Shown here: positions 21,001 through 24,000 of the stretch, in pieces | Position numbering within the stretch: position 1 is the stretch's first letter | Layout of the letters: each line of letters begins with the position of its first letter | NCBI RefSeq assembly: GCF_013122565.1 | Contig: NZ_CP053258.1 | Strand: one strand, 5' to 3' | Source: Escherichia coli | Lineage (GTDB): Bacteria; Pseudomonadota; Gammaproteobacteria; Enterobacterales; Enterobacteriaceae | DNA length: 64,000 nt | Program-made: the position numbers

Positions 21001-24000
21001 CATGTTGGTTATAGTTTTTATTGCATGCCATAACAATCATCCCTGGTGAGGATTTTGCCAGAGGGAAGTATAACCACGGATATTTTTTACAGTTAATCCC
21101 CGAATCCAGTATCCGTGTTTTATATTTATCGAACTCTTTCAACCCATCAATTGTATCTTCTGTCACATTAAAATGGCAGCCATTAATTTCCGCAACAGTC
21201 TTGTAATCCTTGAAAAATGGCTTCGGTTGATTTTTATTCCATAGCCAATATGCAGAATATGCGCCTATGACAAATGCGCTTAACATAATTAGATAACTTT
21301 TTATATGTTTGAGGATTTTGTTATTGAAATTTTTTGCGCCACCAATGCTCTCTTTGTATCCCGCATTAACTTTTACGGCAGGTGGAGCATTGTGTGTATG
21401 TGCGTCTGTTGACGAGTTTATTACATGATTTTGTATGTTAATGTCATTATGGATCTTGAATCCTCTTCTCGGCACGGTTGCAATAAGTGAGTGGGTAGTA
21501 TCACCAACAGCGCGAAATCCGCGTCTGATAATGGATATGTTCTGATATAACGTGTTAGTTGGCACACGCATGCCTTCTTCTTCCCAGACTCTGGTGAAAA
21601 AATCTTGTTGTGCAACCACATCAGGAAAAGCTTCAAGTAGAAGGGATAAACAACGACTGGCTGGCGTTGTCAGAACGACGTTAAGATCGGCGTTATGTAC
21701 CGATATTAATTTTCGGTGCTCAGGCCAGAACTCGATATTATCGTTAATAATCCAGTACATACGTCAATAAACACTAAATCAATCGAAATGGAGATCACAT
21801 AGTTTGCTAAGTATATTGGTATTTACGGCATAAATATATATTAATTTTATATTTATCATGATGATTGAAATGAGGCTTTAATGTTGCAACGTAAAACTTT
21901 ACGTAAATTAACATGGTTAACATTTATGCCACTATTGTTTGTAAATTCATATTTCGTAATGCTTCTGAATTTTTCGTGTGATGGTTTTAAATACTATGTT
22001 GTTTACTCTTGGGGTTACTGCTTATTTATAAAATACGGGCATTTCAATAGATGCCCGTATGAACAGAGTATGATTCTGGCTGGTCGTTGAGTATCAATGT
22101 TGGACCGAATGTGAACGAATAAATAATTCGTTTATTTTACCACCCATTCTCTTTTCGATTCGTTGCTTGTACGCGTAGATGCTACGGATATCCATATCCA
22201 GCACTTCAGCAATCTGATATGGATTATAACCAGAAACCATATACCCCATTATGGTGAATTCCATCTGAGTTAATGTGTTACCTCTGGTAAATGATAAATA
22301 ACGACCAATAAATAGTTGTCTTATCTTTTCATTGGCAACATCAAGACCATCATCATTATATATGACAGCAGATATTGCAGAGTTGTGTTTTCGCCAGTAG
22401 TTAGCTAACGATTGCATATTGCGGTCGCTGACTAAAACAATCCCCATATCCGTACTTGCAAGATAGTCAATCCAGTCTTTTTCAAGGAATAGACGTAAAA
22501 AACTTACTGAAAAATCGACAAAAATATATCCGCTTAATCTCGCATTGTGGTTTTTTGTTAAGATACCTTCCACCACACCACGATTAAAATATGAACTTTC
22601 TTCTGGCCACATACAAAAACACGAGTTTGCGCAATACTGCAAACGCGGTGACTCTTCTGGCATTATTTGGCAATGCATTGAGCAACTATTGCATGTAAGA
22701 CTTTTATAACGACTACAAAGCCCCATGTTAAGAACCTCCCTATCCGTATATAATTGCATAATTTCATTGGTTATTGATGATGTCAATACACCATGATTTT
22801 GTAATGTTGCTGGGAAAAATTGCGATTAATCTGTATTTGCTATAATTCTGATTAAGACATTTAAAAATGCATTTCTCGTTATTAAATATGATTATGTTTC
22901 ACAGATTTAATCTTGCATGGTTGAGAGTGGTCCAGATAACTATCTCATGGTATGAGAATATCTATATCGCAAATTGTTTTTGAATGAGCAGAAGATATCT
23001 TGCGAATCTAAGTTATGCATCTTAAATAGTCTTATTTAAGATGTTCAGATCTCTTTGTGTGTTTAACTAACTGATAATACTAGGATATGATGAGGGGAGT
23101 GATAGAGCGGAATAATAACAAATAAACATTATGAAAACTGGAATGGTTCAAAATTGTAGCATTTTTGAACCATTCACAACGGATATTAGCTAAAGAACAT
23201 TACCGATACGCACAGGATACCCACGATCAGCGTAATCAGATTTCCGATGGAACGCCAGGGTTTAAGCGCCGGGATGAGGTACGTTGACAGCGTAGGCATG
23301 ATGAAAAGTATCATGGCAATGAGCGGGCCGCTGATCGCATAAATCATCGAAATCGCGTTCGGGTTAATGCAACAAACAATGAAGGTAATCAGCGATACCA
23401 ACATAATTGATAGTGCGCGGTTAAATGCACGACTTTTCTTTACACCAACCTGCTGTAATGTTGTTTTGACGACCTCTGTGGCACCTTCAATAACGCCAAA
23501 GTACGTACCCAGGAATGATTTCGACATCGCAACTACTGCGACAATAATCCCCGAAATTGACAACCATGCTGGGGCGTTCGGCAGCATTGAAAGTGCCGAT
23601 AAAATGGTAACCCCTTCTTCTTTAGCCGCTTCAATATACGAAGGTGGAATAGAAAGCAGGCAGCTAAAGACAAAGAACAGTACACTTATGCAGATGATGA
23701 GATAAGCGACTTTCATAATTTTTTTGCATTTATCCATAGCGTGTTCACCATATTTTTCACGTCTGTCTATGGCAAACGTAGAAATAATGGGCGTATGGCT
23801 AAAGGCGAAAACCATCACGGGAATCGATATCCATATCTGGTGAAGGGTATTCTGATTGAACTCTACCTGGGTTGTTAATAGATCAGGTTGCCAACTACCG
23901 ACAAGGTAAATGGAAAGAAATAAGAAATAGGCAATCAATGGGAATACCAAAAAACCCATTACCCGAATGGTTGCATGGCGTCCCATCAGAAAAATGAGAT

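Follow-up and report, generated by a model that had tools for sequence, protein, structure and literature searches.

In Escherichia coli, the common-pilus (ecp/mat) activator MatA/EcpR combines an EcpR_N receiver-like domain with a LuxR-type helix-turn-helix (HTH). YqeH shares this architecture and a similar size, and is 26% identical to MatA/EcpR from M39 onwards. It is encoded on the minus strand of a 64,000-nucleotide stretch of E. coli DNA (contig NZ_CP053258.1 of assembly GCF_013122565.1), hereafter the window. The two proteins differ at the N-terminus, where the K-12 MatA/EcpR has no Cys motif and only a single cysteine in 26 residues, and in location, MatA/EcpR being adjacent to ecp, unlike YqeH. 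A regulator found upstream of ecpA-ecpE in Klebsiella pneumoniae has the same C-x2-C-x3-C-x12-C-x7-WP signature as YqeH and is 33% identical to it, without gaps over 193 aa including the Cys module, compared with 26% identity to E. coli MatA. It has five cysteines rather than six or seven, lacks an equivalent of C36 and sits at ecp, whereas yqeH lies between yqeG and yqeI. Klebsiella genome surveys list this regulator as ecpR. One K. pneumoniae entry bears the name 'RmbA', which raised the possibility of a connection with the Salmonella SPI-3 genes rmbA-misL-fidL-marT. More distant are the NarL/FixJ response regulators and their non-phosphorylated 'auxiliary' relatives (RcsB, EvgA, DesR, VpsT and CsgD), from which YqeH differs in having no match to Pfam Response_reg at E ≤ 1 and only four predicted beta-alpha units; we know of no N-terminal four-cysteine (Cys4) cap in any of these five. 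FNR, Wbl, SoxR, RsrA and Hsp33 are functional analogues only: each has, as YqeH does, a short cluster of three to four rigidly spaced cysteines on a regulatory domain, but their folds and families are unrelated to YqeH and there is no sequence or profile similarity.

To our knowledge, no ligand or signal input is known for YqeH or any other EcpR/MatA-type regulator. Avian pathogenic E. coli deleted for yqeH is less motile and less virulent, and forms less biofilm, adheres less and invades less (PMC9014576), and YqeH acts positively on espE3, an effector gene linked to ETT2, the second type III secretion system of E. coli (PMC11068852). The searched literature contains no mention of cysteines, zinc or iron-sulphur (Fe-S) for YqeH, EcpR or MatA; the gene and its family are known, and the Cys4 module is uncharacterised. 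Here we show that the YqeH cysteines are a conserved and selected feature, and argue that they probably serve a function, as some form of metal or redox site.

A first-pass annotation, made from the sequence of the window, had drawn attention to seven cysteines near the YqeH N-terminus, and this is borne out. Numbered from the start codon defended below, they lie at residues 4, 12, 15, 19, 32, 36 and 38, within a Cys-rich N-terminal module of residues 4-38 (22613..22717, minus strand); the remaining 172 residues (39-210) contain no cysteine at all. Given a Cys content of 1.08% in the 32 other long open reading frames (ORFs) of the window, the binomial probability of at least seven cysteines in 38 aa is 1.6e-7, and no 38-aa segment of those 32 ORFs contains more than five. 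Homologues of YqeH were gathered from a search of 5.8 billion proteins and then aligned. Of 11 full-length orthologues, down to 49% identity, every one retains C12, C15, C19, C32 and C36, and 10 have C38, while C4 is specific to Escherichia, with D, G or N elsewhere. A scan of species-representative genomes with an 11-sequence alignment returned 13 loci, exclusively from Escherichia, Citrobacter and Kluyvera. The orthologues came from Escherichia sp., E. whittamii, Citrobacter sedlakii, C. amalonaticus and three Kluyvera species (44-96% identity), and C-x2-C-x3-C-x12-C-x3-C-x-C is present in every one of them. Moreover, in four orthologue pairs the proportion of nonsynonymous sites that differ (pN) in codons 2-41 is 0.15-0.32, against a saturated synonymous proportion (pS) of 0.58-0.96, which resembles the rest of YqeH, and the Cys codons alternate between TGT and TGC among orthologues. 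The low pN, saturated pS and switching of Cys codons indicate that this region is translated and constrained.

The signature extends well beyond these orthologues. Searching 1.84 billion representatives exhaustively with a profile yielded 172 matches at E ≤ 1e-3, including many relatives of about 200 aa that are 22-40% identical to YqeH and share its N-terminal signature. One match, P0120 (2470 aa, 13 matched stretches), has no relevant cysteines and was discarded as a repeat artefact. The family-wide core is C12-x2-C15-x3-C19-x12-C32, followed by x7-W40-P41 (22631..22693, minus strand), and 30 of 36 motif-bearing sequences keep this C-x2-C-x3-C-x12-C-x7-WP spacing exactly. In an alignment of 28-29 divergent N-termini the four core cysteines are invariant and, besides W-P, are the sole columns of the module without variation; C36 and C38, being clade-specific, fall outside this core. 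We then counted cysteines in relatives whose N-terminus extends 30 residues or more ahead of the WP anchor. At least four were found in 41 and two or fewer in 10, and no complete sequence has three; the sole sequence scored with three (P0016) is truncated N-terminally, with 18 residues before the anchor. This all-or-none distribution points to a cooperative ligand set. The annotation had named loss of the cysteines from orthologues as evidence against its proposal, and what we see is the reverse, with six of seven kept down to 44-49% identity and four at fixed spacing at 22-40%.

All 58 homologues and every locus copy carry a precomputed PF27348 (EcpR_N) annotation. N-terminal fragments of 68-73 aa, with little beyond the Cys region, still bear PF27348, which shows that the Cys module is covered by the Pfam model. 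The NCBIfam EcpR model NF047921 matches YqeH at 2.3e-20, with 73.4 bits against an equivalog cut-off of 300 bits, the matched part beginning only around residue 31. This score below the cut-off, together with yqeG and yqeI rather than ecp as neighbours, makes YqeH a paralogue of EcpR and not EcpR itself. About half of the EcpR_N-family representatives carry the Cys4 module. The cysteine-rich region had been described as unusual for its regulator family; that is true of LuxR-type proteins at large, though not within this subfamily. When the Cys module was searched by itself, a 34-column profile proved too short, and a 43-column version recovered only fragments of the same family, giving no sign of the module on other domain types.

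The residue numbering rests on the translation start, which the first-pass annotation had misplaced in giving the gene as 22094-22786. A 230-aa minus-strand ORF from a TTG does occupy 22094..22786, and the N-terminal peptide quoted for it is found there exactly, the seven cysteines lying within residues 24-58 in that numbering. However, the TTG is 60 nt too far upstream, and translation of yqeH starts at ATG 22726, as in RefSeq. The coding sequence is therefore 22094..22726 (minus strand), 210 aa plus stop, in the frame and with the start that RefSeq gives in E. coli. Direct reading of the sequence finds a Shine-Dalgarno GGGAGG at 22735..22740 (minus strand), 8 nt upstream of this ATG, and an M-G/R-L start is kept across Escherichia and Citrobacter. 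The in-frame extension upstream of the ATG differs in length and sequence between genera, being unconserved in Citrobacter and Kluyvera, and the TTG at 22786 is the opening base of a perfect TTGACA -35-like hexamer. For these reasons we accept ATG 22726 as the true start and reject the TTG. The hexamer is part of a promoter-like site at 22758..22786 (minus strand; TTGACA, a 17-nt spacer and a TG-extended AATTAT, a consensus match of 10/12), a candidate that would place the transcript start about 25-30 nt upstream of ATG 22726. Four promoter-like sites occur in the yqeH region against 6.0 ± 2.5 in shuffled sequences, and so they are not in excess.

Between the cysteines and the HTH lies a domain that had been overlooked when the protein was described as a Cys region placed directly upstream of a DNA-binding domain. 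Residues 36-140 (22307..22621, minus strand) form a receiver-like (EcpR_N) alpha/beta domain of four beta-alpha units, which has a receiver (CheY-like) fold and conserved W40, P41, D71, W85, D101 and A108. Among these positions, which span about 22402-22609 of the window, W40-P41, W85, D101 and A108, the last in a LANYW motif, are near-invariant. Position 71 is D in 53 of 61 sequences and N in the other 8, and D101 is kept in 55. Alignment with DesR puts YqeH strands 95-100 and 118-123 on beta4 and beta5 of the receiver (REC) domain, which makes D71 the likely beta3 aspartate. On this alignment D71, in FVDFS, is probably at REC beta3, the putative phospho-acceptor position; no conserved Thr/Lys set was identified in the receiver-like domain. 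The LuxR/GerE-type HTH follows at residues ~150-205 (22112..22279, minus strand), supported by Pfam GerE, profile matches to the PDB and structure prediction. It had been called standard, and while it is present it is divergent: the match to Pfam GerE (PF00196) is marginal, at 23.7 bits against a cut-off of 23.5 (E 3.8e-5, residues 171-215 of the 230-aa ORF). The family profile matches EvgA in the PDB at 6e-10, and also the DNA-binding domains of RcsB, FixJ, NarL and GerE. AlphaFold2 with a 61-sequence alignment returned a model with a mean pLDDT (predicted local distance difference test) of 89.5 and a predicted template modelling score of 0.86, with residues 11-50 at 83-87. In this model strands 10-12 and 20-22 make a hairpin with C12, C15 and C19, a helix at 29-35 holds C32, and C36 and C38 are assigned to the region of the strand at 37-40. 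Four beta-alpha units then run to residue 139, and the HTH helices occupy 154-203.

From this arrangement we propose that YqeH is a three-part cytoplasmic transcription factor of the EcpR/MatA family. Residues ~8-38 would form a small cysteine knuckle, with C12, C15 and C19 on the beta-hairpin and C32 on the short helix, that most likely binds one metal ion through four thiolates, structural Zn(Cys)4 being favoured. The knuckle would lead straight into a receiver-like domain, of which C36 and C38 occupy the first strand (37-40) and in which phospho-acceptor machinery is not clearly recognisable, and the LuxR-type HTH would contact DNA. The metal site would thereby staple the N-terminal cap to the receiver-like domain, and an occupied site would then be required for YqeH to fold or oligomerise correctly and, in turn, to activate its target promoters.

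Several readings compete with this one, among them that the cysteine stretch has no function, being either chance composition in a decaying island gene or an artefact of a real translation start at M39. Citrobacter koseri homologues (P0020-P0029) are indeed annotated as 195-aa proteins that begin at the counterpart of M39, so that the Cys module goes unseen. The gene is present in 4050 of 5426 complete E. coli genomes and so absent from about 25%, and some alleles are damaged by frameshifts in the Cys-coding region or by a 4-aa deletion between C19 and C32; in BL21-type strains the gene is missing its final 82 nt (alleles P0003, P0011, P0014, P0015 and P0082; hits H45 and H46). ETT2 itself is eroded (PMC11068852), which also counts in favour of non-function. 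Against this, intact E. coli alleles differ almost solely synonymously, the window yqeH showing 8-10 synonymous and 0-1 non-synonymous codon differences from three of them, and cysteines that are invariant at 22-49% identity are hardly the product of chance. A start at M39 is contradicted by in-frame purifying selection on codons 2-41, by the strong Shine-Dalgarno before M1 and by the M-G/R-L start kept across genera. Moreover, the Citrobacter protein nearest to the C. koseri entries over their common region (P0008) has the full module upstream of M39. We therefore reject the M39 start and regard non-function as very improbable. A metal-free thiol/disulfide switch, or structural disulfides, changing conformation under oxidative stress would suit conserved and closely spaced cysteines that include a CxxC pair, CxxC being the classic redox-active motif. 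However, the reducing cytoplasm is normally without structural disulfides, the predicted structure shows no thioredoxin-like fold, and four invariant cysteines that are lost all or none better suit one ligand sphere than one or two disulfides. This reading is thus also improbable, if less so than the absence of any function.

A single tetrathiolate metal site is the most economical mechanism for a rigid, selected, all-or-none Cys4 signature, and C-x2-C-x3-C-x12-C supplies four conserved ligands at fixed spacing. A C-[ILVM]-[SG]-C on a hairpin with a helix-borne ligand resembles zinc-knuckle or treble-clef geometry. Because of this knuckle-on-hairpin plus helix arrangement and the prevalence of such sites, we favour structural zinc as the predicted role of the cap, a tentative choice that we put a little short of an even chance. 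A number of observations weigh against it. The search for zinc-ribbon or Fe-S profiles that the annotation had called for was empty: no Pfam zinc-finger, zinc-ribbon or Fe-S model matched eight family N-termini even at E ≤ 10, or the whole protein at E ≤ 1, and an NCBIfam scan likewise gave no such domain; matches to Tat (E 3.9) and Terminase_5 are incidental. Sequence searches of the PDB returned no relative covering YqeH residues 1-40, and AlphaFold2 with 11 orthologues left residues 1-60 unfolded (pLDDT <50), a run since superseded by the 61-sequence one. Three ligands within eight residues plus a distal Cys are at least as typical of Fe-S sensors, since zinc sites usually pair CxxC...CxxC. 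The existence of Cys-less paralogues such as E. coli MatA/EcpR, finally, shows that the core fold does not strictly depend on the module and argues for a regulatory rather than a purely structural role. The proposal of a metal-binding or redox module holds in so far as the cysteines are conserved and selected, and needs correcting in that no zinc or Fe-S profile matches and the core comprises only C12, C15, C19 and C32.

Several of these points could be turned towards a [4Fe-4S] or [2Fe-2S] cluster, with YqeH a sensor of oxygen, nitric oxide, reactive oxygen species or iron. Loss or oxidation of the cluster would then switch YqeH, so that redox conditions in the host niche would govern the expression of adhesin, flagellar and ETT2-linked genes, as with the N-terminal cluster of FNR. 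The tight C-x2-C-x3-C triad with one distal Cys in rigid spacing follows the arrangement of known Fe-S sensors and enzymes, examples being C-x2-C-x5-C plus a distal Cys in FNR, C..C-x2-C-x5-C in Wbl, C-x2-C-x-C-x5-C in SoxR and C-x3-C-x2-C in radical SAM proteins. Cys-less paralogues such as MatA do without the module, as would suit an accessory sensory input, every carrier found is a facultative anaerobe of the Enterobacterales with the gene adjoining host-interaction loci, and the YqeH clade has two additional conserved cysteines (C36 and C38). However, the missing Fe-S profile match counts here too, and nothing in the searched literature hints that YqeH or EcpR is connected with iron, with oxygen or with the biogenesis of Fe-S clusters. 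Structural zinc, too, can be bound by three ligands close together, as in the C-x2-C-x2-C-x7-C site of alcohol dehydrogenase and the retroviral CCHC knuckles. We consider an Fe-S cluster a serious though less likely alternative, and retain the zinc site as the working model.

In the window yqeH is flanked by the permease gene yqeG (23186-24415) on one side and by yqeI and yqeJ (20951-21760 and 20476-20970) on the other, at the border of the AT-rich ETT2 island. The GC content is 29-36% across 14-23 kb of the window and 46-52% past 24 kb, and this sharp step places the island edge around yqeH/yqeG. RNA folding finds a terminator-like hairpin 34 nt past the yqeH stop (22029..22060, minus strand), with a 10-bp stem AUACGGGCAU/AUGCCCGUAU, an 8-nt loop and a following UUUUAU (-15.9 kcal/mol, z = -3.6 against shuffles); a simple terminator scan did not call it. 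A terminator-like site within yqeH (22625-22644) was judged to be chance. Elsewhere in the window, 14931-15563 (plus strand) encodes an intact 210-aa NarL-type response regulator, ygeK-like, whose counterpart in the closest complete E. coli genome is annotated as a pseudogene with an internal stop.

Other Cys4 carriers are encoded beside adhesin loci. Two Cys4-type EcpR_N regulators flank the K. pneumoniae ecp operon (7001-7618 and 13851-14486 of locus L009), the second being downstream and convergent. Further Cys4 members adjoin chaperone-usher operons, the ecp operon in Dryocola, and autotransporter adhesins in Enterobacter and Kluyvera, so that adhesin-linked carriers come from Escherichia, Citrobacter, Kluyvera, Klebsiella, Enterobacter, Pluralibacter and Dryocola. 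Close orthologues retain the order yqeF-yqeG-yqeH(-yqeI-yqeJ), and in C. amalonaticus the yqeH orthologue has genes for a fimbrial subunit and an usher downstream of it. These neighbouring loci mark the family as one of adhesin-locus regulators, YqeH being its Cys4-type member at the ETT2 border. In Kluyvera genomosp. 3 (L028, 5971-11308) the yqeH orthologue precedes a gene for an autotransporter adhesin, apparently in fragments, and one in convergent orientation for a ToxR-like winged-HTH regulator, which is similar to YqeI in the DNA-binding domain only (34% over 83 aa); no YqeJ-like protein was found at this locus. One hint from this arrangement is that yqeH-yqeI-yqeJ in E. coli could be what is left of an adhesin module and not a component of the type III secretion system.

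In summary, a Cys4 site carried by about half of the family offers a concrete candidate for its signal input, namely its redox state or the occupancy of the site by metal. Should the role be that of structural zinc only, the truncated C. koseri annotations would be corrected, and N-terminal tags, chelators and oxidising purification would have to be avoided. It is also possible, if less likely than not, that the cap houses a labile Fe-S cluster or works as a Zn-thiolate switch that responds to oxidation. In that case YqeH and its relatives, including the K. pneumoniae regulators that flank ecp, would make up a class of LuxR-type regulators, not recognised before, that sense oxygen, redox state or iron, and fimbrial, autotransporter, flagellar and ETT2-linked expression in Enterobacterales would be tied to the redox environment of the host.

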